A stretch of 64,000 nucleotides of DNA from Desulfurococcales archaeon (GTDB taxonomy: Archaea > Thermoproteota > Thermoprotei_A > Sulfolobales > Desulfurococcaceae), in contig JALVYU010000026.1 in the NCBI GenBank assembly GCA_027022365.1, positions 96,001 through 160,000 on the forward strand, in the 5' to 3' direction. Positions 721 through 15,292 of the stretch are shown here, piece after piece. Under the pieces are notes generated by a model, which was given only the letters and a program-made list of their open reading frames with translations, was not told the origin of the DNA and did not search any database. The translations under genes and the position numbers were made by a program. Within the stretch, counting starts at the first letter, position 1, and each line of letters opens with the position of its first letter.

Positions 721-888
721 CTACTTGTGTATTCCTAGCCTGGCTATTACTCCGGCTACGTGTTCTTGTTCTAGGGTATCAATTATATCGTCAATGATCT
801 CAAGTGCTTCATCTATGCTTGGGGCTGTAGCTACCCGGTCTCGGATATACTTTATGATTGCTATGCATTCGGAGCATGGGTTGTTCAC
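721..888 (-). CDS. Small helical hypothetical protein (55 aa)
   Basis: GTG start preceded by GGAGGTG SD; reads MNNPCSECIAIIKYIRDRVATAPSIDEALEIIDDIIDTLEQEHVAGVIARLGIHK. The listed + ORF 725..994 reads like its antisense shadow. Confidence 0.55.
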   Translation of the reverse strand: MNNPCSECIAIIKYIRDRVATAPSIDEALEIIDDIIDTLEQEHVAGVIARLGIHK

Positions 889-1011
889 CCGGCTCCCACC
901 TCCCCCGCGGTTGTTCCCCGCTAGGCTCTCGGTAGCCGTATTTAAAACACTGGGGCACCGGCAAAACTATTTGGGGATGAAAAGGATCTCCTGAGTACTT
1001 CAAGGCTCTGC

Positions 1012-1019
1012 TTTATAAG
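1012..1019 (+). promoter_or_regulatory. Canonical TATA box of the tfb-tbp operon
   Basis: TTTATAAG 40 nt upstream of the ATG at 1052. Confidence 0.5.
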
Positions 1020-1051
1020 GATGAAAGTATTCAATACAGGGGTACAGCGTC

Positions 1052-1675: not shown

Positions 1676-1679
1676 GACG

Positions 1680-2186
1680 TTGGAGCCCCGCGTAGAAATA
1701 GTAAACATCGTCGCAACGATCAAGCTAGAGCCGATGCCAGATCCTGGAGAAGTACTGGGGAAGATACCGGGCTCCAGGCCAGTTAAGAGGTTCCGGGGAG
1801 CAATGCTGAGGATCGGTAAAACCCCTGTGCTGTTCTACAAGAAGAAAATCATAGTAACCGGGGCGAAGAATACCGAGGAGCTCAGAGACACTATAAGGAA
1901 ACTAGTAAGTGTGCTTCATAGGTACGGTATGGAAGCAAAGCCTAGGGGATACGAGATAGTCAATGTAACTGCTAAGGTGGATTTAGGTAGAAGGATAAAC
2001 CTCGTAGAAGCCGCGGAGAGGCTTGGCGGCATCTATGACCCGGACTACAGGCCATACATGGTGGCAAGGATAAACGATACAGTGATAATGCTATCACACA
2101 ACGGAAAACTAGTAATGCTGGGAGCAAAGTCCATTAAAAAATGCTATATGATTTCCGAACATGTTGTTAACAATATATTTCCGTAA
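1680..2186 (+). CDS. tbp: Divergent TATA-binding protein (TBP-like)
   Basis: Two TBP repeats: EIVNIVAT...KIIVTGAKN and EIVNVTAKVDLGRRINL...YDPD...GKLVMLGAKS; starts 4 nt after the tfb stop. Confidence 0.9.
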   Translation: MEPRVEIVNIVATIKLEPMPDPGEVLGKIPGSRPVKRFRGAMLRIGKTPVLFYKKKIIVTGAKNTEELRDTIRKLVSVLHRYGMEAKPRGYEIVNVTAKVDLGRRINLVEAAERLGGIYDPDYRPYMVARINDTVIMLSHNGKLVMLGAKSIKKCYMISEHVVNNIFP

Positions 2187-2296
2187 TACATTCTAGCCAG
2201 TAATATATTTGAGCCAAAGTGTGCTCTGCATTCTCAGACTAAGCACTGTTGCTGAAAATGTTCTATGAAATATATCCCATAAATTATCCGGAAACA

Positions 2297-2305
2297 GTAA
2301 CTATA
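2297..2305 (+). promoter_or_regulatory. Island promoter motif variant GTAACTATA
   Basis: 44 nt upstream of ATG 2341. Confidence 0.5.
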
Positions 2306-2340
2306 AGTGATAGAATATTACATGATTTATATAGAAAAAG

Positions 2341-2823
2341 ATGGTGATGTTTTTAATGAGCTTCCATATAGTTTTATCTGAGGAGGAGACATTTAATAGA
2401 CTAGTGAAGTATTTTGTAGGAAGGAGATTAAAGATACTATCTCTACATAAACCTTCACACATTAAAGTGGAAATCGGCAAATTGTTCTCACTATGGTTTG
2501 GAGAAGCGTTAGGGGTTGTGGATATCAATATTATGAAGCTGGGCAATCATAGTTTAGTCAATCTATACTTTAACTTTCTTAGGGAATATATCTCCGGATT
2601 AATATTGTCTATACTGCTATCGTTTATTCTCACTATATATGGACTACTCATAGACGCGCCCTGGGATGCTGTACTTCTTTTAGCGATTACTGTATTCGCA
2701 ATAGTTATGCTCCTAGAGGGATACAATGTGGCCGTAACAAGGAAGAAGTTCGTAGAGGAGCTATCTTTATTCGTTCAATCAATAAACTCAAACAAGGTGA
2801 ATATAAATGGCAGGCATGATTGA
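2341..2823 (+). CDS. Membrane protein (2 C-terminal TM helices)
   Basis: 160-aa ORF with a hydrophobic hairpin. Confidence 0.7.
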   Translation: MVMFLMSFHIVLSEEETFNRLVKYFVGRRLKILSLHKPSHIKVEIGKLFSLWFGEALGVVDINIMKLGNHSLVNLYFNFLREYISGLILSILLSFILTIYGLLIDAPWDAVLLLAITVFAIVMLLEGYNVAVTRKKFVEELSLFVQSINSNKVNINGRHD

Positions 2824-3877
2824 TCGTGGAGAAAGAAAAGCTGGGGTACCAGTTGTAGCTCTCATTATTACACTAGTATTCATTGCCTTATTGACTATTC
2901 TTTCACCCAAAGTCGACATCTTTACCACATCATCAACGAATAACACCGGAGGAGCTTCCGCGGACCTTGAAAAGCTTATATTAAGCAAGGTCGACCCGTT
3001 AGCCGTCAGAGAATTCGCCGTTAAACTAACAACTGATCCTCTCAATGCTTTTCCTAATCTATGGAGTAAGTATACTTTAATAGATGAGGAAAGATTCCTC
3101 GAGAAAGGCTATTACTGGTATATAAAGATTAGATTGAGTACGCTCGAAGGAATAAATGGAAGTATAGAGTCAAATACACCAGTAGATTTCTATGTTGTTG
3201 ATGAAGAAGACTTTCTACATTTCAAAGAAGGAGAATCATTCTATTACTACACAAAGCCTTCACGTATAAACATATACAGATCAAGCTTTGAGTGGAATGC
3301 ACCACGTGATGGAACATATTATCTAATAGTATATGCAAAATATGGGAATGCAAGGGTAAAACTAAGAGTCGATACATTCACGAAACCCTTCCTAAGCGGG
3401 TTCCCATATAATATAGAAGACAGAGAAGCATGGTATATATGGATAATAAACGTATGGGTCGCAAAGAACATACACTACATCCCGGATCCAAATTTTGAAC
3501 TAGTACAAGATCCTAAACAAACATTAAGGCTAAGAGCTGGAGACTGTGATGATGTAGCAGTACTAATGGCGTCTATGTATCAAGCAGTAGGGCTAAAAAC
3601 CAAATTCGCAGAAGTAGATACAGATGGAGACGGAAAAATAGACCATATAACAGTCCTAGTGTACTACCATGGAACACCTAAAGAATTCCTAGACAGCGAA
3701 GAAACAATAGCATTCATGGCAGGACTAATATCAAGACTGCCAGATGAATACTCGGTAAGATACATAAAAGGCAATAACGGCATATGGATCATAGCTGACC
3801 CATTATTCTCGGAAAGCAACTACTGTGTAGGAATGATAGAACACGAACCATACAAAATAAAAAATATATTCCCATAA
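2807..3877 (+). CDS. Membrane-anchored transglutaminase-like (Cys-His-Asp) protein
   Basis: N-terminal TM; GDCDD catalytic Cys motif, downstream DHI and IIADP complete the triad; beta-sandwich middle domain. Confidence 0.8.
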   Translation: MAGMIDRGERKAGVPVVALIITLVFIALLTILSPKVDIFTTSSTNNTGGASADLEKLILSKVDPLAVREFAVKLTTDPLNAFPNLWSKYTLIDEERFLEKGYYWYIKIRLSTLEGINGSIESNTPVDFYVVDEEDFLHFKEGESFYYYTKPSRINIYRSSFEWNAPRDGTYYLIVYAKYGNARVKLRVDTFTKPFLSGFPYNIEDREAWYIWIINVWVAKNIHYIPDPNFELVQDPKQTLRLRAGDCDDVAVLMASMYQAVGLKTKFAEVDTDGDGKIDHITVLVYYHGTPKEFLDSEETIAFMAGLISRLPDEYSVRYIKGNNGIWIIADPLFSESNYCVGMIEHEPYKIKNIFP

Positions 3878-4111
3878 ATAGCAATGTATGGGCTGGATCC
3901 TCGCGGTTTGATGATGAAGTGTTAATTGGAACGTATTTTAGCGTCGCTTAAATCATATTACACTATATATAATTACATAATGATGTTAATAATTATTATA
4001 TGTTGTTCAGATGCTTAAACAGTTGTTGTAAATTACACTGTACATGGTACTTATACGGTGTCCGGTGCTTTATTCTCGCTTTATTTATCTATACAATTCC
4101 CCATGTAGTTT

Positions 4112-4200
4112 CGATACACTGGGGAGTACACTCCAGTTTGTACTTGTGTTTATACTCCAGTTTGTACTCTGGGAGCGAGACACGAGTGTATCGGTGTACT
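4112..4200. repeat. Two 15-bp direct repeats nested inside a 9-bp inverted repeat
   Basis: ACTCCAGTTTGTACT at 4130-4144 and 4154-4168; CGATACACT 4112-4120 / AGTGTATCG 4185-4193; AGTACAC 4125-4131 / GTGTACT 4194-4200. Confidence 0.75.
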
Positions 4201-4232
4201 ATGCGGAGCATGTCACTCTACGTTATCAATAA

Positions 4233-4241
4233 GTAACTATG
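4233..4241 (+). promoter_or_regulatory. Island promoter motif GTAACTATG
   Basis: 30 nt upstream of the in-frame ATG 4263 (would fit a leaderless transcript). Confidence 0.55.
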
Positions 4242-4262
4242 GACTACGCTGGTGGATTGTTA

Positions 4263-4532
4263 ATGGTGGCTGTATTGAAGGTTGTCCAGTGTATTCTCGG
4301 CTACCTGGCGGAGAAGGAGATAGCGATGCCCATACAGGTGGAGCGTGACCTGAAAATATCGAGGTACCTGGTGTTCGGCTCCCTGATAATCATGGAGGAG
4401 CTCGGCCTCGTCGAAGCGATTGCCAAGAGGGCTAACTGGAAGCTCTACAGGATAACCGATAAAGGCAGAGAATTATTGGAGAAGGGAAAAACAGTTATAG
4501 AGTTGGAGGCTACCGGCCGAGAACCCTCTTAA
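4263..4532 (+). CDS. Winged-helix DNA-binding protein
   Basis: MEELGLVE...LYRITDKGRELL wHTH signature; ORF track starts at 4239 but ATG 4263 is more likely. Confidence 0.75.
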   Translation: MVAVLKVVQCILGYLAEKEIAMPIQVERDLKISRYLVFGSLIIMEELGLVEAIAKRANWKLYRITDKGRELLEKGKTVIELEATGREPS

Positions 4533-6465
4533 CGGCATCTACAACGTTGTCGGGGATAGCCGCTTCAGCCCCGAAACCCCTAATGTAATCCAGGTATTTT
4601 TCACCCACCACGAACAGTATTCTAGCCCCGCTTTTCCCGGCCCTCTCAATGTATTTCCTTATCTTCCCGGGATCCCTGCTGGGACGGGTCTCCACCTCGA
4701 TGAACAAGACATTACCAGTATCCCATGAATTGGCGTCTCGGTATGGTATGGCGATTACATCTGGGATCTCCCGGAGAGGCTCTTCGCCGGTATCGATCCA
4801 TGTCCATACTCCGAGGTTAAGCCTCAGCTCCTCCACGATCCTCCTGATAGCTTCCTGGTGCTCGGGTCCTCCAGCCCTCTCACCGCTAAACACCATCTCT
4901 ACAAGCCTCCTACCCTTATCCGTAAGTTTGTAGAGCCTAGGCCTCCTACCCCTACCACGGGTTCCTGCCTCATAGACCTCTACAAGGCCGAGCTCAGCCA
5001 GCCCGCGGAAAACGCCATACACAGAACTACCCGATATACCGAAGAACCCGGCAACACGCTTCTCCAAAACCTTAGTAGGCATATCGCCCTCATAGTACAA
5101 CACATACAATACATAAGCCTCTATAGGCCTGACCGGGGGCTCTTTAACCTGGATAGTACCGGGCTCCTCCTTTTCTCCAGCCTCCTCGGCTACTTTAGCT
5201 TCGGCTTTCTCCTCTACCGGGGCCCCGTAGAGTTCCAGGCTCCTTGCTATCCTTTTACTGATCTCCGGGTCATCCTCAAACATAGATCCCTGGACATCAA
5301 CGGGAATATATACTGTATTGAGGGTGAAGGGTCTAACAGGCTTACCGTGGACCTCGGTTTTAACCGCGAACCAGTAGAGAGGCAAATTGATCAAGTCTTT
5401 CTCGGAGAATATAGGCTCGTAGAGCTTGGCCAGTAGCTTAGCCGATTTAAGCCCAACCCTGAACGTTATAAAGGTTCTGCAGTTGCCTAGTATGGCGTCC
5501 AGTATCTCCCGCGGGTACTGCTCGGGATATTGAGTAGCCAGTGTAAGATATAGCTTGTACTTACGGGCCTCGGCAAGAATATCGATAAGGGTTGGAACGG
5601 TGAAGTTGTGGGCCTCGTCGATGTATAGGTAGTGTGGGATCCTCATCCTAGGAGCAACATCGATTCTGGACATGGCCGCCGAGAAAATCTTGCCGATGAT
5701 CAATGTGCCGAGGAAGTGTGAAACCTCTTCGGTGAGCCTACCCTTACTGAGATTAATGACTATGAAAGCCCTCGAATCCATGAGCTTCCTGAAGTCAATA
5801 GTGGACCTTCTAGCAGAGAATATAGGGCGGAGTATCCTGGAGCCAACGAGCTTGCTTATCTTGTTCACAACGCTGATAATAGCGTCTTTTGGTAGGCGGG
5901 GCCATTCCTCCTCCCAGAACTTAGCCACCAGGGGATCCTCGACATTAGCTACGAGCTCGTTTCTCCTATCCTCGTCGACAAGCAGATAGTAGAGATCCAG
6001 GAGACTAGTAGACCCAGGCGGCTGCTCTAGGAGGGTGTTTACACAGTTCCTCAATATATGCTCCAGCCTAGGACCCCAGAAGTCCTTGAAAAGCTTCTGC
6101 AACGCAGAAATAAACGCCTCACCCACACGCTCCCTATCCCATTCATCACGATACTCGAGGAAGTTTATCCTCACGGTCTTGCCGAATACCTTAATCGTTG
6201 TGGGGTCTATGTAGACAAGCCTATCAACTCTATCCTCGGGTATCAGCTTAACGATTTCAAGGGCAAGGTCTCCATGCGGGTCCAGCAGGCTGAATCCCTC
6301 GCCGAGGTCTATGTGTTGCTTGATAAGGAACTTGAGCAACGTCGACTTGCCTGTGCCGGATTTACCGAAAACCGCTATGTGGAGGCGATCCACCTTATAG
6401 ATCCCGTACTTCTTCTCCTTAAAGGATCCAAGGTACACTACCTCGTCTAGACGCTTAAGCTCCAC
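4510..6465 (-). CDS. VirD4/TraG/HerA-type P-loop ATPase with C-terminal wHTH and PD-(D/E)xK nuclease-like domain
   Basis: Walker A GKSGTGKS, LLDPHGDL, Walker B LYIDEAHNF, EARKY..LTLATQ; C-terminal GLVE..LYKLTDKG wHTH followed by H...IPDVI...FIEVET. Confidence 0.85.
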   Translation of the reverse strand: MELKRLDEVVYLGSFKEKKYGIYKVDRLHIAVFGKSGTGKSTLLKFLIKQHIDLGEGFSLLDPHGDLALEIVKLIPEDRVDRLVYIDPTTIKVFGKTVRINFLEYRDEWDRERVGEAFISALQKLFKDFWGPRLEHILRNCVNTLLEQPPGSTSLLDLYYLLVDEDRRNELVANVEDPLVAKFWEEEWPRLPKDAIISVVNKISKLVGSRILRPIFSARRSTIDFRKLMDSRAFIVINLSKGRLTEEVSHFLGTLIIGKIFSAAMSRIDVAPRMRIPHYLYIDEAHNFTVPTLIDILAEARKYKLYLTLATQYPEQYPREILDAILGNCRTFITFRVGLKSAKLLAKLYEPIFSEKDLINLPLYWFAVKTEVHGKPVRPFTLNTVYIPVDVQGSMFEDDPEISKRIARSLELYGAPVEEKAEAKVAEEAGEKEEPGTIQVKEPPVRPIEAYVLYVLYYEGDMPTKVLEKRVAGFFGISGSSVYGVFRGLAELGLVEVYEAGTRGRGRRPRLYKLTDKGRRLVEMVFSGERAGGPEHQEAIRRIVEELRLNLGVWTWIDTGEEPLREIPDVIAIPYRDANSWDTGNVLFIEVETRPSRDPGKIRKYIERAGKSGARILFVVGEKYLDYIRGFGAEAAIPDNVVDAVKRVLGR

Positions 6466-6502
6466 TACCCTCTCACCATCGGGAAAATGATTACGGGAGA
6501 CA

Positions 6503-6511
6503 CGTAGTTGC
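6503..6511 (-). promoter_or_regulatory. Island promoter motif variant GCAACTACG
   Basis: 46 nt upstream of GTG 6465. Confidence 0.6.
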
Positions 6512-6594
6512 AGGTTAATGGATAAGTGTGGTGTACCGACCCCTTACAAGCTAGTCATGGAGGCCTCCAAGGGATTACGGGTTAGTATTCTCCC

Positions 6595-6603
6595 GCAACT
6601 ATG
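6595..6603 (+). promoter_or_regulatory. Island promoter motif GCAACTATG
   Basis: 45 nt upstream of GTG 6640. Confidence 0.65.
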
Positions 6604-6639
6604 CTTAACCGTTCCACTCTATAACGTGGTGTATGAACC

Positions 6640-7578
6640 GTGTGGTCTTACCTCGAGATAATCCCTCACCCGGAGACCAGGATTGAACCCCTACAATTAG
6701 AGGATTTCATAGCGGCACTTTACGGTACAAGGGCTACCTGGGCATACATTATAGTATATGACGGCGGCCATCTAGGCTTCTACTACATAGTGCCTCGGCA
6801 ACTAACGAATAGTACGGTTAAGAGCCTTGAGTCAAGGTTCAACAAGATCATTATAGAGGAATCCAAGCCCCCTAGATTGATCGATTATAAATATTATACG
6901 GAGCTTAGACTGCTCAAAAGCTTCTACTACCCATTATTCCACCTAACAAGACAGAAAGAGATAGAATCCAACCCCGTAGACGTGATTGCCTCAAGCATGC
7001 TCGGAGGGGAGAGCATGGTATTAATAATAGCTACGCCAGAGCCCCGCGGAGCAGGAGTAATAGCTGGATTCGTCTACGAGAAGAAAACAGGTAAACCAGC
7101 AAGCACTGGGAAAATAATACTAAAAGAAGCCCTAAGCCTAGGAGACGCATTCTTCGGCTCAACAAGCTCTACCACGTCAAAACAACAATACGTGTATAAG
7201 CCCGAGCTAACCGAGGAGGAGAAAAGAATCCTACGTGAAGCCCAGTACAAGATGCACCACCAACTATACGCAACGAGGATAATAGTCCTAGCAAAGGAGG
7301 AAGACCTAGTCTACGATATAGCCAGTAGCTTCAATCAATTCCCATTAAATGGTTTCACCTTTAAAGTAAAAGAGGTGAACGAGAAGATCCTCCGAGAGAT
7401 AAAAGAGCTTAAACCAAGAAGACTGGGCCTGTTATTTAAGGATAAGAAAATACCGGTCCTGAGCCCTAGAGAACTAGCGGCATATGTGAACCTGCCTACG
7501 GCACTGGATACTTTGCCGGTGAAAACTGCTTCAATAATACTTAATCCCCCGCCTGAAATCCCGGAGGAAGCGGATTAA
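6640..7578 (+). CDS. Hypothetical protein resembling the N-terminal accessory domain of large VirD4/TraG-like ATPases
   Basis: Motif order YLEIIP, GFYYIVP, ELRLLKSFYYPL, NPVDVIASSM, IASSFNQF..NGF, VLSPRELAAYVNLP; family recognised from memory, not by search. Confidence 0.6.
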   Translation: MWSYLEIIPHPETRIEPLQLEDFIAALYGTRATWAYIIVYDGGHLGFYYIVPRQLTNSTVKSLESRFNKIIIEESKPPRLIDYKYYTELRLLKSFYYPLFHLTRQKEIESNPVDVIASSMLGGESMVLIIATPEPRGAGVIAGFVYEKKTGKPASTGKIILKEALSLGDAFFGSTSSTTSKQQYVYKPELTEEEKRILREAQYKMHHQLYATRIIVLAKEEDLVYDIASSFNQFPLNGFTFKVKEVNEKILREIKELKPRRLGLLFKDKKIPVLSPRELAAYVNLPTALDTLPVKTASIILNPPPEIPEEAD

Positions 7579-7645
7579 GCATTACATGCTCTTTCACTTG
7601 GCTTATTAGTGAATAGCATTACATTGATTTATCTAGGGGTATAGG

Positions 7646-8407
7646 TTGCCGGATTGGAATACTCATGTTAAATGGGCTAGTAGGCTCGGCATAGATAGGG
7701 AGATTGCAGAGTTTATCAATAAATTGATTGATGACCCTGAGGAAGTATTGAAGGATGACCCTACAGAGCTGGGTGAACTGTATAGGAGGGATCCGGAGGG
7801 CGTTAAAGCCGCCCTAATAGGACATGATTGGGGTAGGAAGGGTAAGGCTAGGCTTGACATTTTGAAGACTTACTGCCGTATACGGTTTGGGGAGAAGGGA
7901 GTAATGGCTACCGAACTACACCATGTCCTCGACTATTTAACACATATAAGAAGCCCGGAGAACCTGGCCAGAATAATTGTTAGCTCATCAATATTTCACG
8001 CGACAAGCGGTAAACCATTAAGCGAGAGGATGAAACTCGTAAAAGAATTCTACTGGAATAGAAGAAAATATTCTGAATCTCTGGAAAGGCTTACGGAAGA
8101 AATAGCGAAGCTGGACTATGAATCCTATAAGAACATAATAATCGAGCTCCTAAAGAATAAGGCACAAGAATGGGAGTTGCACAGAGAAGTCTATGACTTT
8201 GTGATCAATAACCTAGACGAGATACTGAAGGACATCGACAAGTATCTTGCAAAGAAAAGAAAACGAATAGCACGCTCACTATCGATTAACACACTAGACA
8301 AATGGACTGAAAAATTAACCGCTCTTCTCATAGGTATTATACAAGTCCTTATCCCAGTGTCTCTCGAACTGATAGCTCTCGTATCTTGTCCGTATTATTC
8401 GTGGTAG
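7646..8407 (+). CDS. Hypothetical protein, possibly a metal-dependent hydrolase (MPDWNTH...IDDP...GHDW...HHVLD)
   Basis: His/Asp-rich motifs; paralog of 1..564; the last ~30 aa overlap the convergent gene and may be read-through. Confidence 0.65.
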   Translation: MPDWNTHVKWASRLGIDREIAEFINKLIDDPEEVLKDDPTELGELYRRDPEGVKAALIGHDWGRKGKARLDILKTYCRIRFGEKGVMATELHHVLDYLTHIRSPENLARIIVSSSIFHATSGKPLSERMKLVKEFYWNRRKYSESLERLTEEIAKLDYESYKNIIIELLKNKAQEWELHREVYDFVINNLDEILKDIDKYLAKKRKRIARSLSINTLDKWTEKLTALLIGIIQVLIPVSLELIALVSCPYYSW

Positions 8408-9520
8408 TCTTGGCAGGGCTGTTGCTCCGCGGTAAATGTATCTCCCCAGCTTGATTCCTGCTTTTACTCCATAGCCGGGGCCTAGACCCGTTGCCCCACT
8501 ACCAGCGGCACTAGCTAGGATGTATCCCCTGAATACCCTCACGGCAGGGTAGACCGTGTACCCTAGTAGTGCTGAAGCGGCAAAGCTCGCGAAACCGCTG
8601 CGGCCGACGAACATTGGTGCTATGAGTGGTATTGTTAGGCTCGCGATAGCTATCATTACTTTGACGATTGCATCCTCGAGGCTTGAGCCCGGAATACCCA
8701 TTGCTATTGCAGAGGCCACAGCGATCATTGAACCGGCTACGAGCTGAACCAGTGTTAGGGCTATCAGGGTCTCGATAAGCATAGCGGCTATCCTGTTTAT
8801 CTTGGGGATGAGGCTTAGGACGAGGAGTATCGGGAGAATAGCCGCCAGGGTAGCTACCGCCAGTATCCTCACGGCCCCGGCTACGGCTACCACGAGTATG
8901 AAGAGGAGTATCAACGGGTCAATGATGATGGCCAGCCCGCCTATGCTCCCGAAGCCTATACCGAGATACCATGACAACGTATCGGGCGGGCATAGATAAT
9001 ACGTTATGGCTGACAACAAGTGGACGGAGTACTCGTAGAGAAGCATGGATAGGGGTATGAGTACGGCTATCCAGAGACTCTTCTTAACCATGAGCATGCC
9101 CTCGCCCTCCCTGATCAACCCGAAGCTCTCCAGCCCAATAGATAATGCACCGAGGACTATGGGCAGAGATAGAAGGACATAGGCTACGAGCTTAGTCTTC
9201 TCATACAACATCAGCATCTCCGGTACACGGACCTCGTACCAGGAAACATTCTTTACCGGGCCCCAATCCGCATACTCCGGAATAGGGTTCCCTGGGACAG
9301 GCTTAGACGGAGCCCTCAGCAACGGGCCGACGGCTCCCCAGAAAGCACTGTTAAGCTGGCCTGCGAGCCACTTGAAAGCGGATAGTATGGCCTCCTTAAT
9401 CTTGTTGATGATGTCCTCGATAGGGTTCCCTGAGGGCTGAGACTCAAACCCGTACCCATAAACGCCTCCGGCGGGTCCAAGAACGATCAGCAGGGCTAAA
9501 AGGACCGCGAAACCCCTCAT
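8315..9520 (-). CDS. Polytopic membrane protein, VirB6/CedA-like channel candidate
   Basis: Signal peptide plus about 7-8 TM helices and a Gly-rich basic tail; located among transfer genes; ATG 9520 preferred over TTG 9532. Confidence 0.65.
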   Translation of the reverse strand: MRGFAVLLALLIVLGPAGGVYGYGFESQPSGNPIEDIINKIKEAILSAFKWLAGQLNSAFWGAVGPLLRAPSKPVPGNPIPEYADWGPVKNVSWYEVRVPEMLMLYEKTKLVAYVLLSLPIVLGALSIGLESFGLIREGEGMLMVKKSLWIAVLIPLSMLLYEYSVHLLSAITYYLCPPDTLSWYLGIGFGSIGGLAIIIDPLILLFILVVAVAGAVRILAVATLAAILPILLVLSLIPKINRIAAMLIETLIALTLVQLVAGSMIAVASAIAMGIPGSSLEDAIVKVMIAIASLTIPLIAPMFVGRSGFASFAASALLGYTVYPAVRVFRGYILASAAGSGATGLGPGYGVKAGIKLGRYIYRGATALPRLPRIIRTRYESYQFERHWDKDLYNTYEKSG

Positions 9521-9555
9521 AATACGCCCCAAAAAGAAACAGCTTGGAGAAAGGA

Positions 9556-9564
9556 TATAGTAAC
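9556..9564 (-). promoter_or_regulatory. Island promoter motif variant GTTACTATA
   Basis: 44 nt upstream of ATG 9520. Confidence 0.45.
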
Positions 9565-9583
9565 AGAACGGTAAAAAACCGTG

Positions 9584-9991
9584 TCAGTTCAGGCTATAAA
9601 GGAAAACATTTGAACCCGTAACAACGACTACTCTGTCAGGAAATCCATATTTTTCGGGAACATACAGCGTTATCTCCCTAACCATCCCCGGCTCCACGGT
9701 TACGGATACTGCCACGGAGTACCCCGGCACACCGAGCTTAACTATCCTGGCCTCCTCCCACCCGGCATTGTATATCCAGAGCTTGACAACATAGTGTCTA
9801 TTCTCGTAAGCTACACTATAGTCCGCCAAGACGAGCCTGACAGTTTTAGCGTGTGCTTCAAGGCCTATAAGGGAGCCGATGCCCGAAAACCCTCTCGCCT
9901 TCGAGAAGAGTATAGGGTAGGCTAGAGCGAATCCAGCAATGGTTATCCCTATGAGAACGATTGCCGCCACAACGTTTGATACGGCCTTCAA
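9584..9991 (-). CDS. Archaeal type IV pilin-like protein
   Basis: Class III signal KA/VSNVVAAIVLIGITIA followed by a beta-sandwich with YNAG. Confidence 0.8.
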   Translation of the reverse strand: MKAVSNVVAAIVLIGITIAGFALAYPILFSKARGFSGIGSLIGLEAHAKTVRLVLADYSVAYENRHYVVKLWIYNAGWEEARIVKLGVPGYSVAVSVTVEPGMVREITLYVPEKYGFPDRVVVVTGSNVFLYSLN

Positions 9992-9994
9992 GGC

Positions 9995-10501
9995 TCACCC
10001 TACTCCTCTCCTGCACATAATGTTGACGGACACAGTCTTCGTGTTGCCGTAGGGATCCGAGTAGGTTATCTTGACAACATATGTTTTCCCTACACCTATG
10101 TCCTGCTTGTCCAGGGTGAAGGTCCATGTATCACTGTATGTCTCGCCGGGAAGTATCTGCTTCCCCACGTTGATCGTGTACCTGGTCCCCCACTGCCCCT
10201 GGCTATCCGTCCCAATGATCTCTATCTTCGTTATGGTGGCGGGATCCGTGCCCGAGTTAGCCAGCTTAACGCTCACCATGTAGTCGTACTCGGTCTTCCA
10301 CTGCCACCCCTGCTTAACCCTGCTGGTGCCCAGATAGTATAGCTCGACGCCGCTGACCGCTATGGCTGCTCCCTTAGGGTTGCTACTCTTTATCGTCGTG
10401 GTCATGTAGTAGCCCAGCAGCAATGCACCCGCTATAGCCACACCTATCAAGACCACGGCCGCTATGACGGGGCTTATAGCCTTCATCCTCTTCCTACCCA
10501 T
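9995..10501 (-). CDS. Archaeal type IV pilin-like protein
   Basis: Class III signal RKRMKA/ISPVIAAVVLIGVAIAG, NSGT motif; ATG 10501 preferred over TTG 10519. Confidence 0.85.
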   Translation of the reverse strand: MGRKRMKAISPVIAAVVLIGVAIAGALLLGYYMTTTIKSSNPKGAAIAVSGVELYYLGTSRVKQGWQWKTEYDYMVSVKLANSGTDPATITKIEIIGTDSQGQWGTRYTINVGKQILPGETYSDTWTFTLDKQDIGVGKTYVVKITYSDPYGNTKTVSVNIMCRRGVG

Positions 10502-10535
10502 AGAGGGCACCCGGTACAAGATACGTGGTAAAAGA

Positions 10536-10544
10536 CATAGTTAC
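10536..10544 (-). promoter_or_regulatory. Island promoter motif GTAACTATG
   Basis: 43 nt upstream of ATG 10501. Confidence 0.65.
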
Positions 10545-10560
10545 GTATCATGAATGCTCC

Positions 10561-10569
10561 GTAACTATT
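10561..10569 (+). promoter_or_regulatory. Island promoter motif variant GTAACTATT
   Basis: 42 nt upstream of ATG 10603; back-to-back with the 10536-10544 copy. Confidence 0.6.
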
Positions 10570-10602
10570 CCTCGCCACAACGCTCATAGCGGGAGAGAAG
10601 GT

Positions 10603-11100
10603 ATGGCCAAGCTACTAGCACACCAGATCCTGGGACTAGCGGTAGCCTACTATGTCCTAAGACCAGGAGACCTCGTGCAGGCATTCATATATGGAGGCCT
10701 AGCCCTATTAGGCTCCGTGACTCCTGATCTGGACGGGTTGCGTAAACACCGGGCAACCCTCCACAACATATTCGCCCTCATCCTGGCCGGACTAACGATA
10801 TATATGGTTCTTAATACTGTTGAAGCCCTGAACATGGCTCCGGTAAACCTGTATCCGGCCAGTTCAGCTGTAGCCTACATACTAGCCTATCTAAGCCACC
10901 TACTAGCCGATATACCGACTGGATCCGGAGTAGCAATTCTCTATCCACTATCTAATAAGAAGATCGGAATACTAGGCCTCAAATACGACAATATGGTGTA
11001 CAACGGTTTACTGGTAGCCCTAGCTACTCTGCTCCTCTACTCGTTCTTCACCAATGCACTGACCCCTTATTATACTATAAGGGATTGGTTTATCCCCTGA
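10603..11100 (+). CDS. Membrane-bound metal-dependent hydrolase (YdjM/LexA-binding family)
   Basis: H...GSVTPDLD..HRATLH...YLSHLLAD..T..G...YP motifs; ATG 10603 preferred. Confidence 0.85.
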   Translation: MAKLLAHQILGLAVAYYVLRPGDLVQAFIYGGLALLGSVTPDLDGLRKHRATLHNIFALILAGLTIYMVLNTVEALNMAPVNLYPASSAVAYILAYLSHLLADIPTGSGVAILYPLSNKKIGILGLKYDNMVYNGLLVALATLLLYSFFTNALTPYYTIRDWFIP

Positions 11101-11163
11101 ACCAAGCATTCATGGTATGTACCCCAACGGCTACCGAGAAAAGCTTGAGGCCTAGTTGTTGAA

Positions 11164-11172
11164 GCAACTATG
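11164..11172 (+). promoter_or_regulatory. Island promoter motif GCAACTATG
   Basis: 47 nt upstream of ATG 11211. Confidence 0.65.
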
Positions 11173-11210
11173 TATCCAGGATTCCTAGGTCATGAAAGGG
11201 GTGAAAAGAT

Positions 11211-11438
11211 ATGGGCTTGGTCGTGGTCAGGACCTCTCTAGACCTTGAAAAGCTGGCCAGGCGACTGAAAAAACTCGGGTACGAGGAGATAACGCCAGGA
11301 GACCTCGCAGAGCTCTTCGGCACAAACAGGATTTGGGCGGGGAAGATACTCGCCAGGATGGAGGAGCTCGGTCTGGTGGAGAGGCTGAACTCCCGTAAGG
11401 CCAGGCCGGCAAAGTACAGGATCATTGTAAACCAGTAA
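11211..11438 (+). CDS. Small winged-helix DNA-binding protein
   Basis: ITPGDLAELFG...AGKILARMEELGLVER; GGGGTG SD. Confidence 0.8.
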   Translation: MGLVVVRTSLDLEKLARRLKKLGYEEITPGDLAELFGTNRIWAGKILARMEELGLVERLNSRKARPAKYRIIVNQ

Positions 11439-11443
11439 CTATG
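11435..11443 (+). promoter_or_regulatory. Island promoter motif GTAACTATG
   Basis: 46 nt upstream of TTG 11481; overlaps the upstream stop codon. Confidence 0.65.
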
Positions 11444-11480
11444 CAGGAAGTAGCCCGGGAAGTATTAACGGTGCACGGGC

Positions 11481-11813
11481 TTGAGGCTGTGGGTAAAATT
11501 TAAGAAGATATCCCGGCTCATACCGCTGTGGCTGGCCACTGGTTTATCGGCGGTGGCCTACGCCCAGGGAGGGGAGGCCCCGCCCGAGGAACTCACGGAA
11601 ATGGTCGACAAGATCCTGAGCCTGCTACAGTACATAGGGGTAGCAGTGCTTATAGGAGGAATGATCTATGCGGGGATTCAGCTCGCGGCGGCAGACACAC
11701 CGGAGGAGCAGGCCCGGGCAAAGAAGAGGATAGCAGCAATACTCCTAGCAGGAGCCATAATGGCTTTAGCCAAGCCTATAGTGAGCTGGCTCACCGGATT
11801 GAATCCGCCCTAA
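11481..11813 (+). CDS. VirB2/TrbC-like conjugative pilin
   Basis: Cleavable leader ending AYA/Q, two hydrophobic helices separated by a charged loop (EEQARAKKR); T-rich terminator-like tract follows. Confidence 0.8.
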   Translation: MRLWVKFKKISRLIPLWLATGLSAVAYAQGGEAPPEELTEMVDKILSLLQYIGVAVLIGGMIYAGIQLAAADTPEEQARAKKRIAAILLAGAIMALAKPIVSWLTGLNPP

Positions 11814-11914
11814 CTCCCTTTATTTTTCTCCGACTCTATAATTTACTTTTATGTCATTAGAGTAAACCATAATATATTCTCAGCAATATATCATATCAGG
11901 GGAGGGGAGTAGCC

Positions 11915-12358
11915 CTGAGAGAGCCTACGGGAGATGTTAAGGTTAAGAAGCTGGGGAGACAGCTTCTAATCAATATTCCTAGAGACGTAGTGGCTCATCT
12001 TGGCATGAAGCCGGGCTCCTTGGAAATAGTGTTGATGACCAGTGATAAGATTGTGCTTAGACGGGGCATGGGCCCGGTCAGGGTAGTGGATGTGGGGAGG
12101 GGGAAGCTGAGACTGTATATTGGTGAGGATAAAGCCCCCTTCAAAGAAGGAGAGCGGGTCCTGGTAACGGTCCAGGACGATAAGCTGGTGGTCAAGCGTA
12201 TAGACTACTACGTCGTGAAGCCGACCAAAGGGCGGGGACAGTACAGGGTAAACATACCCTGGGAACTAGCAGAGAAAACCGGCCTGGATAAGTATCGATT
12301 AGTCAAAATATATAGTGATGGAAAAAGGGTAGTGCTGGAGCCTTTCGCCGAGATATAA
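11915..12358 (+). CDS. Tandem AbrB/MazE/SpoVT-domain DNA-binding protein
   Basis: Repeated INIP..V..HLGMKPG / FKEGERVLV / VNIPWELAEKTGL units; frame is open back to CTG 11915 after a GGAGGGG SD (ORF track start 11990). Confidence 0.7.
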   Translation: MREPTGDVKVKKLGRQLLINIPRDVVAHLGMKPGSLEIVLMTSDKIVLRRGMGPVRVVDVGRGKLRLYIGEDKAPFKEGERVLVTVQDDKLVVKRIDYYVVKPTKGRGQYRVNIPWELAEKTGLDKYRLVKIYSDGKRVVLEPFAEI

Positions 12359-12363
12359 TAAAT

Positions 12364-12416
12364 ATTATGTGTTAAGGGCATAATATTTAAATAATATTAT
12401 GTCCTAAACACATAAT
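12364..12416. promoter_or_regulatory. 24-bp inverted repeat (operator) flanking the TATA box of the HEPN-MNT operon
   Basis: ATTATGTGTTAAGGGCATAATATT (12364-12387) matches the reverse complement of 12393-12416 at 22/24, around TTTAAATA. Confidence 0.7.
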
Positions 12417-12418
12417 GG

Positions 12419-12808
12419 TTGAGAATATTGGAACAGTGGAGAAAATACTTGGAAGCCGCTAAGAGATTCTTAAGATCAGCCGAGAAAATCCTAGATGAAT
12501 CACCAGAAGCAGTACCGCTATTAGCTCATAGAGCATTAGAACACATGATCATGGCTCTCTCATACTACTATACCCCAGAAGAAGCAAACTTACTCAACAC
12601 CCACGGCCGTAGGAGGAGCTGGATAACACGAATGATCCACCAGGGAAAAATACCATACAGACTCCTATCAATATTCGATGAGCTAACGAGGATCTATAAG
12701 AGGAGCACATATTTATTAGAGAACGGAGAACTAGCAAGGAGATCCCTAGAACTCGCCAAAGAGGCTTTGGAGAATATAAAGGAATCATTAAAGGGCGGCA
12801 CAGAATGA
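12419..12808 (+). CDS. HEPN domain protein (toxin of HEPN-MNT pair)
   Basis: YLEAAKRFLRSAE...AHRALEHMIMAL...TH...STY helical HEPN pattern; overlaps the MNT start (ATGA). Confidence 0.8.
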   Translation: MRILEQWRKYLEAAKRFLRSAEKILDESPEAVPLLAHRALEHMIMALSYYYTPEEANLLNTHGRRRSWITRMIHQGKIPYRLLSIFDELTRIYKRSTYLLENGELARRSLELAKEALENIKESLKGGTE

Positions 12809-13413
12809 GTCTCCCCACCAACATATTGATAGGGATCCTCCGAGAGATAACCAAGGAAATAATCCGAGAATGCAGAAACGTATACCAGGTCATACTCTAC
12901 GGTAGCTACGCCCGCGGAGATGCAGGTCCTAAGAGCGATGTAGACCTCCTAATAGTATCGGAGGACCCGAGAATATGCGAGGAAAAAACTATGAGAATAG
13001 GGGCTGAAAAAGGACTATCAATACTTCAACCAGTAGCTATCTCACCAGACGAACTAACTGAGCCCGAGAAGAAGAAACTATATCTTAATGCCCTACTAGA
13101 AGGCCTACTACTCTACCAGTCCCCAGCATCAGAACCAGTCAAGACAGCACCCCCAAAATACAAACCATACCTAATCATAAAATATAGAGCACCACCAGAA
13201 CACCGGAGAAAACTCACTGGCACAACAGTCGTTCAAAGAGGCCACAAGATGAGAGCACGAGGACTCATAGAAAAAATGGGAGGAATAAGATTAGGGCCCG
13301 GAGTATTCATGATAGAATACACGAAATGGCCACCACTAGAACTAATCATGCAAAAACTAAGAGTAGAATACAAGATAAAACACATAATACTAGCCAAAAC
13401 AGATTTCATATAA
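12805..13413 (+). CDS. Minimal nucleotidyltransferase (MNT) with C-terminal extension
   Basis: VILYGSYARGDAGPKSDVDLLIV. Confidence 0.9.
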   Translation: MSLPTNILIGILREITKEIIRECRNVYQVILYGSYARGDAGPKSDVDLLIVSEDPRICEEKTMRIGAEKGLSILQPVAISPDELTEPEKKKLYLNALLEGLLLYQSPASEPVKTAPPKYKPYLIIKYRAPPEHRRKLTGTTVVQRGHKMRARGLIEKMGGIRLGPGVFMIEYTKWPPLELIMQKLRVEYKIKHIILAKTDFI

Positions 13414-13471
13414 AAGTATATGATTTAAATGTGAAGCAAACGGCTTTTCCACGGATCACGAGTATGTAGCC

Positions 13472-13796
13472 ATAGCTACAGCGTGGAAAGGCGGAGCACG
13501 AAGGGAAAACCGTGACTGGAGCAGGTTCACCTATGGGATAAGGATAGGAAGGCGCGGTAGAGACGCCCTATTCAGCAGAGCCTGGAGCTACGTCGAGCTA
13601 ATCATTGAGGATAAGTACCGTATAAGCGTGGAGATAACGGATTCATTCTGGAGAAAATGCTCAGAGCTCAGGCACGAGTTCTTTAAACACTACTTCAGAG
13701 AAAAAGAATATAATCCATGGCCCAAAAGGAAACCCACCAAAATTCATGCTCGTACATGTAAGGGATAACGTGTTTAAGCTATACCCACTAGACTAG
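13472..13796 (+). pseudogene. Frameshifted small conserved-hypothetical gene
   Basis: IATAWKGG...YGIRIG...DSFWRKCSELR...PWPK, continuing in the +1 frame as GNPPKFMLV...FKLYPLD*; no in-frame ATG/GTG/TTG start. Confidence 0.55.
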
Positions 13797-13902
13797 TATC
13801 AATGATCTCAATAGCTGGAAGATCACTACGCATTTTGGACACCGTTGATACGGAGATATAATGAAACATAGTTATATGTAATTCATTACCGTTGAACATA
13901 AT

Positions 13903-14553
13903 TTGTTACTCGACAATAATACAGTATATAGAGGCTTCCAGAGGCGTAGAAGAATTGAAGACAAAATATCTCGAAGCATGATTGAATCAAAGCTTATCCA
14001 ACTAGGTCTTGATAAGATAACATTTAAGAATACTAATCAATTTAAACGATCTAGAAATATCAGAGCAAAGATCTCAAAATTGAAGAAAGAACTCCGTCGG
14101 AAAGGCTTATCAAAAGAAGAAATTGAAAAACATGTTGAAGAGCTAAAAGATAAAGAGGAGGAAAAACTCCGGAGAAGAGTAGTCGGATTAATAGCTGATA
14201 TAGTATACAAACTTATCCGTGGAGGAACAACCAGTAAGCGGCTTACAAGGATCCCTTATTATAAGAAATGGTATTTAGAGAAATACCTAGACTTCCTAAT
14301 ACACCAAGGCATGATTAAAGCCATATACAGAGGGCCGCGGCCCAAAGAATTCGAAGATGAGAGATGCAGAAGGGTGCGTTCTATACCTGGGGATCCTTGG
14401 GATAAAGACCCTTATAGAAGCGGAGAGCTGAAGATATGGCTCTTTTACACGACAGGTAATAAGACTCTTAGAGAGAAGAGACTGAAATGCTGGGCACCAT
14501 ATATAGTGATTGATTTCTCTCCGCTAATAGATAGAGTTTCCGGTGATAAATAG
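13903..14553 (+). CDS. Basic hypothetical protein (coiled-coil plus possible wHTH)
   Basis: 216-aa ORF; LEKYLDFLIHQGMIK resembles a wHTH helix 3/wing. Confidence 0.6.
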   Translation: MLLDNNTVYRGFQRRRRIEDKISRSMIESKLIQLGLDKITFKNTNQFKRSRNIRAKISKLKKELRRKGLSKEEIEKHVEELKDKEEEKLRRRVVGLIADIVYKLIRGGTTSKRLTRIPYYKKWYLEKYLDFLIHQGMIKAIYRGPRPKEFEDERCRRVRSIPGDPWDKDPYRSGELKIWLFYTTGNKTLREKRLKCWAPYIVIDFSPLIDRVSGDK

Positions 14554-14556
14554 GTT

Positions 14557-14991
14557 TCAGAGAAAGCTTCTGATTATTTCTTCGGCTAGAGGCTGGATGG
14601 TGTAGAACGCTATAATAGATACTACTATGACTATAATTGCTCTTAGAGTATTTCTCACTGTAAAATCTATTGTTTTACTGGTAAGGACAGCTAGTGCTAT
14701 GGAGGAGAGTAGCATAGACGATTTTATCTCGTTCAACAGATCGGATTCGATGCTTACCGAACCTATGGGAACTAGATCGGTGAGTTCACTGCTAACATTG
14801 ACTCCCGAAGCGAAGCTGGTGCTCAGCCCTGTTACTAGTGAAACTGTTAATACCAGCATTACCGGGGTGGTGTAGGCTAGGAGCTGCAATACCTGACGGA
14901 CACCGAGATCCCCTATAAACGGAAAGCTGAACAGTGGTTGCATCCACCAAGGTTCGTCATCAACTGCTGGAACTCTAACTTCTCTAGGCAT
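14557..14991 (-). CDS. PrgI/VirB3-like membrane protein
   Basis: N-terminal VRVP...PLF...LGVRQVLQLL followed by TM helices. Confidence 0.5.
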   Translation of the reverse strand: MPREVRVPAVDDEPWWMQPLFSFPFIGDLGVRQVLQLLAYTTPVMLVLTVSLVTGLSTSFASGVNVSSELTDLVPIGSVSIESDLLNEIKSSMLLSSIALAVLTSKTIDFTVRNTLRAIIVIVVSIIAFYTIQPLAEEIIRSFL

Positions 14992-15024
14992 TAACTATAC
15001 CAATATAGGTGAGAACGCCAAGAG

Positions 15025-15033
15025 TATAGTAGC
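15025..15033 (-). promoter_or_regulatory. Island promoter motif variant GCTACTATA
   Basis: 42 nt upstream of ATG 14991. Confidence 0.45.
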
Positions 15034-15134
15034 AGATCATAAATAAAGCGTTATAGCCGTCAACAGATCAATAATAATCTGTAAATTCCTGAGAGGCGAG
15101 AAAGCTTGAGGGGAGAGACCCGAACTAAAATATA

Positions 15135-15292
15135 TGGTCCCGCGGGGGGGACTTGAACCCCCGACCACCCGGTATCTGCGAGCCACGCCGCCCCGCCTTC
15201 ATCCAGGCCCGATCATTCACGGGCCGGTATGGCGGGTGGGGGGCTCGGCTTCCCCACTACAGCCGGGCGCTCTGCCGCTGAGCTACCGCGGG
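15135..15292 (-). tRNA. tRNA-Tyr(GTA) with 83-nt intron at 37/38 (15174-15256), CCA encoded
   Basis: CCCGCGGTAGCTCAGCGGCAGAGCGCCCGGCT-GTA-G[intron]ACCGGGTGGTCGGGGGTTCAAGTCCCCCCCGCGGGACCA. Confidence 0.95.

Follow-up and report, generated by a model that had tools for sequence, protein, structure and literature searches.

Archaea that carry several copies of TBP or TFB have long been suspected of using them in the manner of sigma factors, and to our knowledge clear cases of a paralog pair with a visibly different core promoter are scarce. In Sulfolobus acidocaldarius, the UV-inducible promoters of the ups and ced genes carry a non-palindromic A(N)TTTC motif 30-80 bp upstream (Le et al., 2017, as described in PMC6101591), and in Sulfolobales the ced and ups genes are activated by TFB3, a truncated TFB (PMC6101594). 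According to the latter source, truncated TFBs are found in 16 crenarchaeal genera, fall into three classes and co-occur with Ced. TFIIB homologs are also described as recurrent beside VirB4, VirB6 and pilin genes, on archaeal integrative-conjugative elements and at type IV pilus loci (PMC6563490, PMC4858521). In the TFB2 regulon of Sulfolobus, the TATA boxes are reported to be nearly identical to those of TFB1 promoters, and only the spacing between the B recognition element (BRE) and the TATA box differs (bioRxiv 10.64898/2026.09.06.749720). In eukaryotes, herpesvirus TBP mimics (ORF24 of KSHV, the herpesvirus linked to Kaposi's sarcoma, and its relatives) read late promoters of the TATT type (PMC12529657, PMC7498053). 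Here, we describe a stretch of 64,000 nt from a Desulfurococcales archaeon (hereafter the window), in which a short oriented motif, GYWACTAYR, precedes the genes of a putative DNA-transfer and pilus element that also encodes a TBP paralog and a TFB-like protein of its own. The reading that we favour, and that we hold with some reserve, is that the motif serves as a core-promoter element, dependent on orientation, that belongs only to one family of such integrated elements and is read by this private TBP/TFB pair.

The window corresponds to G000:C26:96001-160000, where G000 is the Desulfurococcales archaeon assembly (1.74 Mb, 44 contigs), C designates a contig and the other G numbers used below designate related genomes. 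Ten motif sites are located in an island within the first 15.1 kb. They had been listed in the original prediction, made by a reader of the sequence alone, and all coordinates and strands were confirmed. As had been claimed, strand and gene positions show that each of the ten copies is directed toward a gene, and the two divergent gene pairs both carry back-to-back copies (6503-6511 with 6595-6603, and 10536-10544 with 10561-10569). In the following list, sites are named by the first base of the motif, and distances with a plus sign are counted from that base.

Site 2297, plus strand (2297-2305): GTAACTATA, before a unit encoding a 160-aa membrane protein and a transglutaminase-like protein (2341-3877); geometry ambiguous
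Site 4233, plus strand (4233-4241): GTAACTATG, before a small winged-helix gene (85 aa; 4239-4532 in the open reading frame track, likely start TTG 4275)
Site 6511, minus strand (6503-6511): GCAACTACG, before the gene of a 651-aa ATPase (4510-6465, minus strand); GGTGA at +34, GTG at +46
Site 6595, plus strand (6595-6603): GCAACTATG, before a unit encoding a 312-aa and a 253-aa protein (6640-8407); GGTG at +33, GTG at +45
Site 9564, minus strand (9556-9564): GTTACTATA, before the gene of a polytopic membrane protein of about 400 aa (8315-9520, minus strand); GGGG at +34, ATG at +44
Site 10544, minus strand (10536-10544): GTAACTATG, before two pilin-like genes (9995-10501 and 9584-9991, minus strand); GGTG at +33, ATG at +43
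Site 10561, plus strand (10561-10569): GTAACTATT, before the gene of a YdjM-family membrane protein (10603-11100); GGAG at +31, ATG at +42
Site 11164, plus strand (11164-11172): GCAACTATG, before the gene of a 75-aa MarR-like winged-helix protein (11211-11438); GGGGTGA at +34, ATG at +47
Site 11435, plus strand (11435-11443): GTAACTATG, overlapping the stop codon of the MarR-like gene, before a VirB2/TrbC-type pilin gene (11481-11813); GGTG at +35, TTG at +46
Site 15033, minus strand (15025-15033): GCTACTATA, before the gene of a 144-aa protein (p144), a fragment-like paralog of FlaJ/TadC-type platform proteins (14557-14991, minus strand)

A copy of the motif heads all nine transcription units in 2297-11813. 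The TFB/TBP, AbrB and HEPN-nucleotidyltransferase genes carry no such copy. The original prediction had seen ordinary TATA-like sequence before the tfb, AbrB and toxin-antitoxin genes instead; CTTTATAAGG is indeed found 35-44 nt before the tfb-like ATG, and AATATTTAAATAATA before the HEPN gene.

The exact nonamer GYAACTATG occurs 37 times in the whole genome and 7 times in the window, versus a mean of 1.03 in 100 dinucleotide shuffles of the window, none of which reached 7. Five exact copies had been counted within 2297-15033 (12.7 kb); this number holds, and the rate in the rest of the genome (32 in 1,729.5 kb) predicts 0.24 (Poisson P = 5e-6). The other 49 kb, credited before with a single stray copy, contain two, at 45875-45883 (minus strand) and 47455-47463 (plus strand), neither of which is upstream of a gene. 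The consensus covering all ten sites is the degenerate pattern GYWACTAYD, a post hoc choice. It is observed 24 times in the window for 13.5 expected and, because 13 of these occurrences are in the first 15.1 kb (1-15,100; 3.8 expected at the genome rate) and 11 in the remaining 48.9 kb, the excess lies entirely in the island. The 13 comprise the ten sites and three copies that are not at gene starts (1850-, 3816+ and 10405-).

At the gene level, a crude set of 1,476 non-overlapping genome open reading frames (ORFs) of at least 120 aa was searched for GYWACTAYD at a distance of 40-48 nt upstream of a candidate start, all candidates within the first 25 codons being allowed. The motif precedes 6 of the 16 island ORFs and 4 of the 1,460 ORFs elsewhere (Fisher P = 1e-10), and one of these four is a related pilus gene; the remaining motif-bearing island genes are shorter than 120 aa, hence outside the test. 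The strict form GYAACTATR stands at promoter position in none of the 1,460 host ORF-genes outside the element and a pilus locus described below. When the 120 nt upstream of 20 island genes (starts as in the ORF track) and of 1,460 host genes were compared for 7-mers without guidance, GTAACTA, AACTATG and GCAACTA were among the five best words. Enrichment over shuffled sequence or host upstream regions, on which the original prediction had made itself depend, was thus found with the shuffles, the gene-level test and the 7-mers, and the enrichment of this island-specific motif is confirmed as real and specific. A position weight matrix (PWM) of 15 columns, trained on 12 sites of G000, was also run across the genome. 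The training sites account for 12 of the 45 best matches (score >= 13.9), with no further convincing member; among the 33 others, one has an ORF start 40-48 nt downstream, and it is inside a 373-aa gene on the opposite strand. Motif-like matches before Mrp/Mnh-like antiporter genes on contig C31 and at C31:283452 were judged to be due to chance.

The consensus was refined in an alignment of 17 sites, which includes orthologs and one overlapping pair, so that its figures overstate independence. In this alignment, G1 and A4-C5-T6-A7 are invariant and T8 is found in 15 of the 17 sites, while T or C occupies position 2, A or T occupies position 3, and position 9 has G in 10 sites and A in 5. The flanks are informative at -4 (A in 13/17) and -2 (C in 11/17). 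On the 3' side, the sequence is pyrimidine-rich at +9 to +12 (Y at +11 in 16/17) and not A-rich, and the wider consensus reads A-Y-C-n-G-Y-W-A-C-T-A-T-R-T-n-Y-Y. An A/T-rich stretch extends from -14 to -3. Further upstream, ACG is located at exactly -18 to -16 in 7 sites and within -19 to -15 in 8 of the 17, versus 23 of the 792 GYWACTA occurrences genome-wide. The 9-mer has no dyad symmetry and is strictly oriented; the sole inverted repeat is the 10536-10569 pair, in which the copies belong to two divergent promoters and are 16 nt apart.

Spacing was examined in 18 sites, 12 from G000 and 6 from its relatives. In 15 of them, a Shine-Dalgarno (SD)-like G-run of the GGTG type starts at +30 to +36, a range of only 7 nt, and start codons are found at +40 to +47. 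The centre of the motif is about 40 nt before the start codon and 26-32 nt before the G-run. For comparison, the host SD is GGTGA at -11 to -7, and 88 of 490 well-defined genes have a GGTG that begins at -11. The three misfits are sites 2297 and 15033 and the p144 site of G010. At site 2297, the ATG at +44 has no SD and the only GGTGA is at +46, followed by ATG 2356 at +59; the canonical TTTATATAG is present at 2327-2335. At site 15033, the SD is mutated in G000 and intact in G161. Four start codons had been placed downstream of the starts of the ORF track; those at 9520, 10501 and 10603 have an SD-like G-run at host spacing and were retained, and the one at 4263 has to be replaced by TTG 4275. 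With TTG 4275 at +42 and GGTG at +32, the outlying distance of 30 nt once attributed to site 4233 disappears. Indeed, in the window and in the two orthologous loci of G103 and G301, GGTG at +32 and TTG or GTG at +42/43 are kept although the intervening bases differ. A leaderless start of this winged helix-turn-helix (wHTH) gene, with ATG 4263 at +30 from the motif, was rejected on the same grounds.

The motif lies where host TATA-like boxes peak. Between -100 and -17, host TATA-like 8-mers are most frequent at -44 to -41 (29 versus 5-19 in all but one other bin), and the host A+T content is highest at -43 to -39 (0.70-0.73). Upstream of the tfb-like gene, the centre of CTTTATAAGG likewise falls about 40 nt ahead of the ATG, and an SD-like GGGGT lies between the two. 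The motif itself does not correspond to a canonical 8-bp A/T-rich TATA box, having G1 and C5 in 17/17 sites and G9 in 10/17; the consensus of 45 host tRNA promoters is AAAACCTATAAAACCC. Because GGTG follows the motif at +30 to +36, we infer that the 5' end of the mRNA lies between the motif and the SD. With a minimal leader, transcription would start 1-6 nt before GGTG, and the centre of the motif would then be 23-28 nt upstream of the start, at the position of a TATA box, which in canonical archaeal promoters is centred some 26 nt upstream. Since the coupling between motif and SD is tight, a minimal leader is the simplest explanation.

The motif is also kept in the diverged promoters of related elements in five other genomes, G010, G222, G103, G301 and G161. 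G010 belongs to a different family and contains a decayed element beside a tRNA, with three sites whose flanks are unrelated to the window: GTAACTATA before the ATPase homolog, with GGTGA at +32, GTAACTATG before the VirB2 homolog and GTTACTATG 40 nt before the ATG of the p144 homolog. In G222, where the DNA is 88-93% identical, three sites are identical (10536-10544, 10561-10569 and 11164-11172). Upstream of the VirB6-like gene of G222 the region has been replaced, yet GTTACTAAC is found 45 nt before the GTG, with GGTG at +33. In G103, the counterpart of site 2297, GCAACTATA, is the longest conserved block in an otherwise non-aligning spacer. The wHTH site, GTAACTATG, is fully conserved in G103 and G301, whose sequences have diverged over about 30 nt upstream. 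G301 is from the same genus, with a TFB-like protein 68% and a TBP paralog 51% identical to those of the window, and there both motif sites of the pilus locus are the longest conserved non-coding blocks. Finally, the p144 gene of G161 is preceded by GTTACTATA, with GGTG at +32 and ATG at +42.

At more distant loci, the picture is different. Homologs of the ATPase and of the 312-aa protein (p312) with 33-42% tblastn identity (loci L032-L036; genomes G120, G034, G119 and G190) stand in a different gene order, and 0 of the 26 GYWACTAYD matches found there show the SD and start geometry; hence, the motif is confined to the close element family. When genome contigs were searched with the ATPase, all matches were HerA/TraG-class genes of actinobacteria and other bacteria, picked up by a generic Walker-type word, and they were not used.

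A second set of sites is present in G000 itself. Four exact GYAACTATG copies cluster at C26:262689-267937, about 160 kb from the island, in the region of a type IV pilus locus (G000:C26:259835-268425; L001 4835-13425) that encodes a split T2SSF/FlaJ-like platform protein, pilins and a large secreted protein. Two of the four copies precede genes of this locus, one 43 nt before the ATG of a pilin (MKAISPV...) and the other 45 nt before a 95-aa ORF, with GGTG at +33/+34. The exact copies at C26:265171 and C26:267937 are inside ORFs and were treated as chance occurrences. This pilus locus, with its two motif sites, was detected in G000 and G301 alone, which are the two genomes of the genus that hold the TBP/TFB pair.

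The genes of this pair are adjacent in the window:

1052-1675, plus strand: compact TFB/TFIIB-like protein of 207 aa, with an ordinary TATA box (CTTTATAAGG) at 1008-1017
1680-2186, plus strand: divergent TBP paralog of 168 aa, starting 4 nt after the TFB-like gene (PF00352, 1.1e-18, two repeats)

The first 34 residues of the TFB-like protein align with the ribbon of Pyrococcus furiosus TFB (1pft, E 1.4e-7), with DAETG in place of CAKCG. In the family, all 13 aligned sequences start with an MLVYD-like stretch, just before the second half of the ribbon, and have no ribbon cysteines; a zinc ribbon with four metal ligands is not present. In an AlphaFold2 model (pLDDT 74), residues 50-55 form a helix, and nine more helices lie between residues 61 and 206. 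All 21 Foldseek matches in the PDB with E <= 0.001 are TFIIB, TFB or RNA polymerase III (TFIIIB/Brf-type) chains, with TM-scores of only 0.29-0.36, and the C-terminus matches Pfam HTH_23 at residues 172-205. The protein is thus modelled as a cyclin-like helical core followed by a helix-turn-helix (HTH) at the C-terminus.

The family profile of the TBP paralog matches S. acidocaldarius TBP (1mp9) over residues 5-167 with E 7.7e-23. In crystal structures of TBP bound to DNA, a pair of phenylalanines in each repeat kinks the DNA. Both are kept in repeat 1 of the paralog (RFRG, LFY). Compared with the host TBP and S. acidocaldarius TBP, repeat 2 has YDPDYRPY for YEPEQFPGL and ML, II or IV for IF. 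Because D-P-D-x-R-P-Y is invariant in 15 clusters of TBP paralogs, which are 47-72% identical to the window protein, the change in repeat 2 is selected and not the result of decay. The host genome itself encodes a single canonical TBP, on C7, along with two full TFBs. The TFB-like and TBP-paralog genes are adjacent in G000, G103 and G301, and five further cluster pairs, in which the longest contigs of the TBP-paralog and TFB-like clusters are equal in size, suggest a conserved pair. Prediction of a complex between the two proteins gave a score of 0.00, which speaks neither for nor against binding. A metagenome scan with the TFB-like protein yielded one near-identical 1-kb contig and six N-termini of ordinary TFBs; the TBP-paralog profile yielded one locus in genome contigs (L165) and none in viral contigs, and the TFB-like protein was not found in plasmids.

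A further ORF with a TFB-ribbon-like stretch, LIWDYTRGEVVCMDTGEVVDRIYDYGP, was observed 3 kb to the left of the window (L038 18047-18376, minus strand; G000:C26 at about 94.0-94.4 kb), where it adjoins the gene of a 617-aa protein whose N-terminus is HTH-like. The element may reach leftward as far as this ORF.

How would these factors be related to the motif? An ordinary TBP, which binds in the minor groove, accommodates G:C pairs poorly, and since the motif contains invariant pairs of this type we propose the private TBP/TFB pair as its reader. The motif would be recognized by the TBP paralog, whose repeat 2 lacks both kinking phenylalanines, together with the compact cysteine-less TFB, a role that we infer for both proteins. 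Expression would then proceed as a two-step cascade, host factors acting on the ordinary TATA promoter of the private pair and the pair in turn acting on the transfer genes.

Several points weigh against this proposal. The P values given above are overstated, since sites from related elements are not independent. With the queries used, the private pair was not found in G161 (93% complete) or G010 (99% complete), though motif sites are kept in both; both loci have the appearance of remnants. The real TATA box and its BRE could instead be the A/T stretch at -14 to -3 and the ACG at -18, in which case the motif would be between the TATA box and the transcription start, at about -17 to -9. TATA-like boxes of the host are spread broadly, and a second peak is seen at -60 to -57. 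A PWM of the host tRNA promoters failed to distinguish host upstream regions from shuffled versions of them, and the claim that motif promoters are devoid of a host-type TATA box was dropped for that reason. Lastly, any of the three winged-helix domains encoded in the element could read the motif.

On this last point, the motif might be an operator or activator site for a winged-helix regulator of the element, either the 85-aa wHTH protein (4275-4532), the MarR-like protein (11211-11438) or the PadR-like domain of the ATPase; we regard this as unlikely, though deserving serious attention. The site would be next to a weak TATA box at -14 to -3, or overlap it, and the regulator would switch the whole module together with its own gene. 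The number of such domains in the module agrees with this view, as does the presence of the motif before both small regulator genes, which is what autoregulation predicts. The wHTH gene and its motif are kept together in G103 and G301, and the A/T-rich stretch and the enriched ACG leave room for a TATA box and BRE upstream of the motif. However, strict orientation without dyad symmetry is unlike most dimeric winged-helix operators, a 7-nt variation of the distance to the SD is tighter than usual for regulator sites, and the private TBP/TFB pair would be left without a role. A further step down in probability, and rather improbable in our opinion, is a variant BRE-TATA junction (a host BRE end AAC followed by TAT(A/G)) read by the host TBP and one of the two host TFBs. 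The promoters would then resemble each other through copying within the element family and would be kept at a set strength, the private pair doing something else. In support, AAAACCTATAAAACCC contains AAC(C)TATA and one host tRNA promoter reads GAAAACTATATAG, the host does possess two full TFB genes, and G161 and G010 still have motif sites, with no private pair found in either genome. What this view accounts for poorly is the invariant first G, the G at position 9, which is not a host TATA feature, the pyrimidine-rich rather than A-rich 3' side, and the fact that no host gene outside the element and the pilus locus has the strict motif at this position.

The two remaining explanations carry little weight. 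It is very improbable that the motif acts in RNA, as a 5'-leader signal for processing, stability or translation placed about 25 nt before the SD of a transcript that starts upstream. A leader element would also show a fixed distance to the SD and a strict sense orientation. However, except for ACG and the A/T stretch, no conserved promoter-like box is found further upstream, and at 10536-10569, where the copies are back to back and 16 nt apart, each upstream promoter would overlap the motif of the other. That the pattern is due to chance, or is a non-functional relic of repeated DNA, is hardly credible. The degenerate pattern was chosen post hoc, and the two exact window copies and three degenerate island copies that are off gene starts could be taken in that sense; the enrichment tests, the spacing to the SD and the persistence of the motif while its flanks diverge argue against it.

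As to gene content, the motif-bearing genes appear, from domain matches and context, to constitute a Ced/Ted-like type IV secretion and pilus module. The 651-aa ATPase matches DUF87 (HerA, 1e-9), TrwB_AAD_bind (4.4e-7) and TraG-D_C (2.3e-5) and has the PadR-like domain mentioned above; these matches put it in the HerA-FtsK/VirD4 class and do not separate VirB4 from a coupling protein. The VirB2-like pilin (11481-11813) matches PF18895 (6.6e-11) and PF04956 (1.7e-9). The hydrophobic protein of about 400 aa (8315-9520) has no Pfam match, and its VirB6-like label comes from context only. The products of 9995-10501 and 9584-9991 are pilin-like, with class-III-signal-like N-termini (MKAISPV... and MKAVSNV...). 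The 85-aa wHTH protein has a marginal Pfam match to EarA-like proteins (22.8 bits, cut-off 22), and the 312-aa and 253-aa proteins belong to no family. Such a gene set is described for Ced/Ted-type archaeal DNA-transfer machines (PMC9905601).

Some other features of the island were recorded. Proteins encoded at 1-564 (minus strand, at the left edge of the window) and at 7646-8407 (plus strand, in the transfer module) are paralogous (MPGWEIHSKVY... and MPDWNTHVKW...), with no family match. GCATTACAT occurs twice before the 253-aa gene (7590-7640), and ATTACAC(T) words recur at 3957-4045 in a conserved non-coding stretch; these words may be a second cis word of the element. The non-coding stretch in question, about 350 nt (3880-4232) between the transglutaminase-like and wHTH genes, shares 88% identity with its counterpart in G103 and about 71% with that in G301. 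It includes a tandem 24-nt repeat (4118-4165) and other short repeats and, at gathering score, matches nothing in Rfam. The stretch may be an origin, a transfer origin or a non-coding RNA of the element.

To the right of the VirB2/TrbC-type pilin gene, the island continues, from left to right, with AbrB-like, HEPN, nucleotidyltransferase and p144 genes and ends at a tRNA gene:

15138-15292, minus strand: intron-bearing tRNA-Tyr at the right end of the inserted DNA, found by Rfam and by ARAGORN with intron search

The default ARAGORN run does not call this tRNA gene. ARAGORN with intron search also called a "tRNA-Stop" with anticodon tta at G000:C26:586448, which may be spurious. Comparison with relatives indicates that the module is integrated at tRNA-Tyr and absent from genomes of the same genus. 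For G098, a 99% complete genome of that genus, homology with the window sets in at 15128, where tRNA-Tyr has its 3' end, and the ATPase was not found in three same-genus genomes (G098, G161 and G246). More broadly, p312 was found in 4 of 63 genomes of the family and the TFB-like protein in 3 of 325 genomes of the order. An integrase, a clean left end and an att-type direct repeat of the tRNA within 51 kb leftward were looked for and not found.

The island of the original prediction is composite, since its right 3.2 kb (11922-15128, including site 15033) stands alone in G161, where a 3.4-kb version at the same tRNA-Tyr (p144, 110-aa gene, nucleotidyltransferase, HEPN and AbrB) is directly followed by host genes (locus L174, G161:C85). 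Or G161 may hold a deletion remnant. Pieces of this right-hand segment are duplicated at C26:262-268 kb: the AbrB-like gene (98%), the 110-aa gene (95%) and the 3' end of the platform-protein gene.

In the literature searched, the motif words gave only primers and unrelated sequences among the 15 matches listed of 524. Neither the GYWACTAYR motif, nor a TBP paralog of the present kind paired with a zinc-less TFB on such an element, nor a non-TATA word at the TATA position was found there; supplementary tables, which were outside the search, may list the TFB class. The cis side of the system is sharply defined, with 12 sites in one genome and the motif kept by related elements of 5 more, and candidate trans factors are encoded next to it. 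The motif offers a way into the question of how archaeal conjugation-like machines are turned on, and the combination of motif, about 25 nt and GGTG can serve as a simple sequence tag by which vent metagenomes may be searched for operons of this element family.

Regulons of transfer systems that are linked to a TFB paralog are a known kind. As with A(N)TTTC in the description given in PMC6101591, the motif is short, oriented and non-palindromic, and it precedes pili and VirB2/VirB4/VirB6-type transfer genes in a crenarchaeon with a truncated TFB paralog linked; in that description the protein that reads A(N)TTTC is not known. In contrast, the word is another one (GYWACTAYR), and its position is held within 7 nt whereas the Sulfolobus motif may be anywhere in 30-80 bp. 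Moreover, the ups and ced genes of Sulfolobus are described as chromosomal and induced by DNA damage (PMC6101591), whereas the genes here are carried by an integrated element. Like TFB3, the protein encoded here is a shortened TFB paralog tied to an archaeal DNA-transfer system. However, TFB3 is reported to have essential zinc-ribbon cysteines and a coiled coil and to lack an HTH (PMC6101594), whereas the protein here has no ribbon cysteines, a helical core with a C-terminal HTH and an accompanying TBP paralog. The TFIIB homologs of integrative-conjugative elements and pilus loci bear zinc fingers, unlike the cysteine-less protein of the window, and the portions of PMC6563490 and PMC4858521 consulted mention neither a TBP partner nor a promoter motif for them; in PMC4858521 the words TBP and promoter do not occur.

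With regard to the promoter itself, the motif resembles canonical archaeal BRE/TATA elements in its orientation dependence, its inferred position relative to the mRNA start and its TAT core, and differs from them in having invariant G and C positions instead of an 8-bp A/T box; the host consensus is AAAACCTATAAAACCC. As in the TFB2 regulon, a TFB paralog is associated with a defined gene set; there the boxes are described as nearly unchanged (10.64898/2026.09.06.749720), whereas here the box itself differs. It is conceivable, although we consider it more doubtful than the core-promoter reading above, that the element has a complete orthogonal basal system, made up of a TBP paralog whose repeat 2 would read bases and no longer kink an A/T step, a zinc-less compact TFB and a non-TATA promoter on every transfer and pilus operon. 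If true, such a system would set the genes of the element apart from promoter recognition by the host and turn them on together, as an archaeal counterpart of phage sigma factors or of the herpesvirus TBP mimic. The herpesvirus mimics are eukaryotic, have no TFB partner, are evolutionarily unrelated and, according to the sources cited, have been shown experimentally to bind their promoters (PMC12529657, PMC7498053). They are nevertheless like the putative system described here in that a mobile genome supplies its own TBP-like protein to select non-canonical boxes before its own genes.

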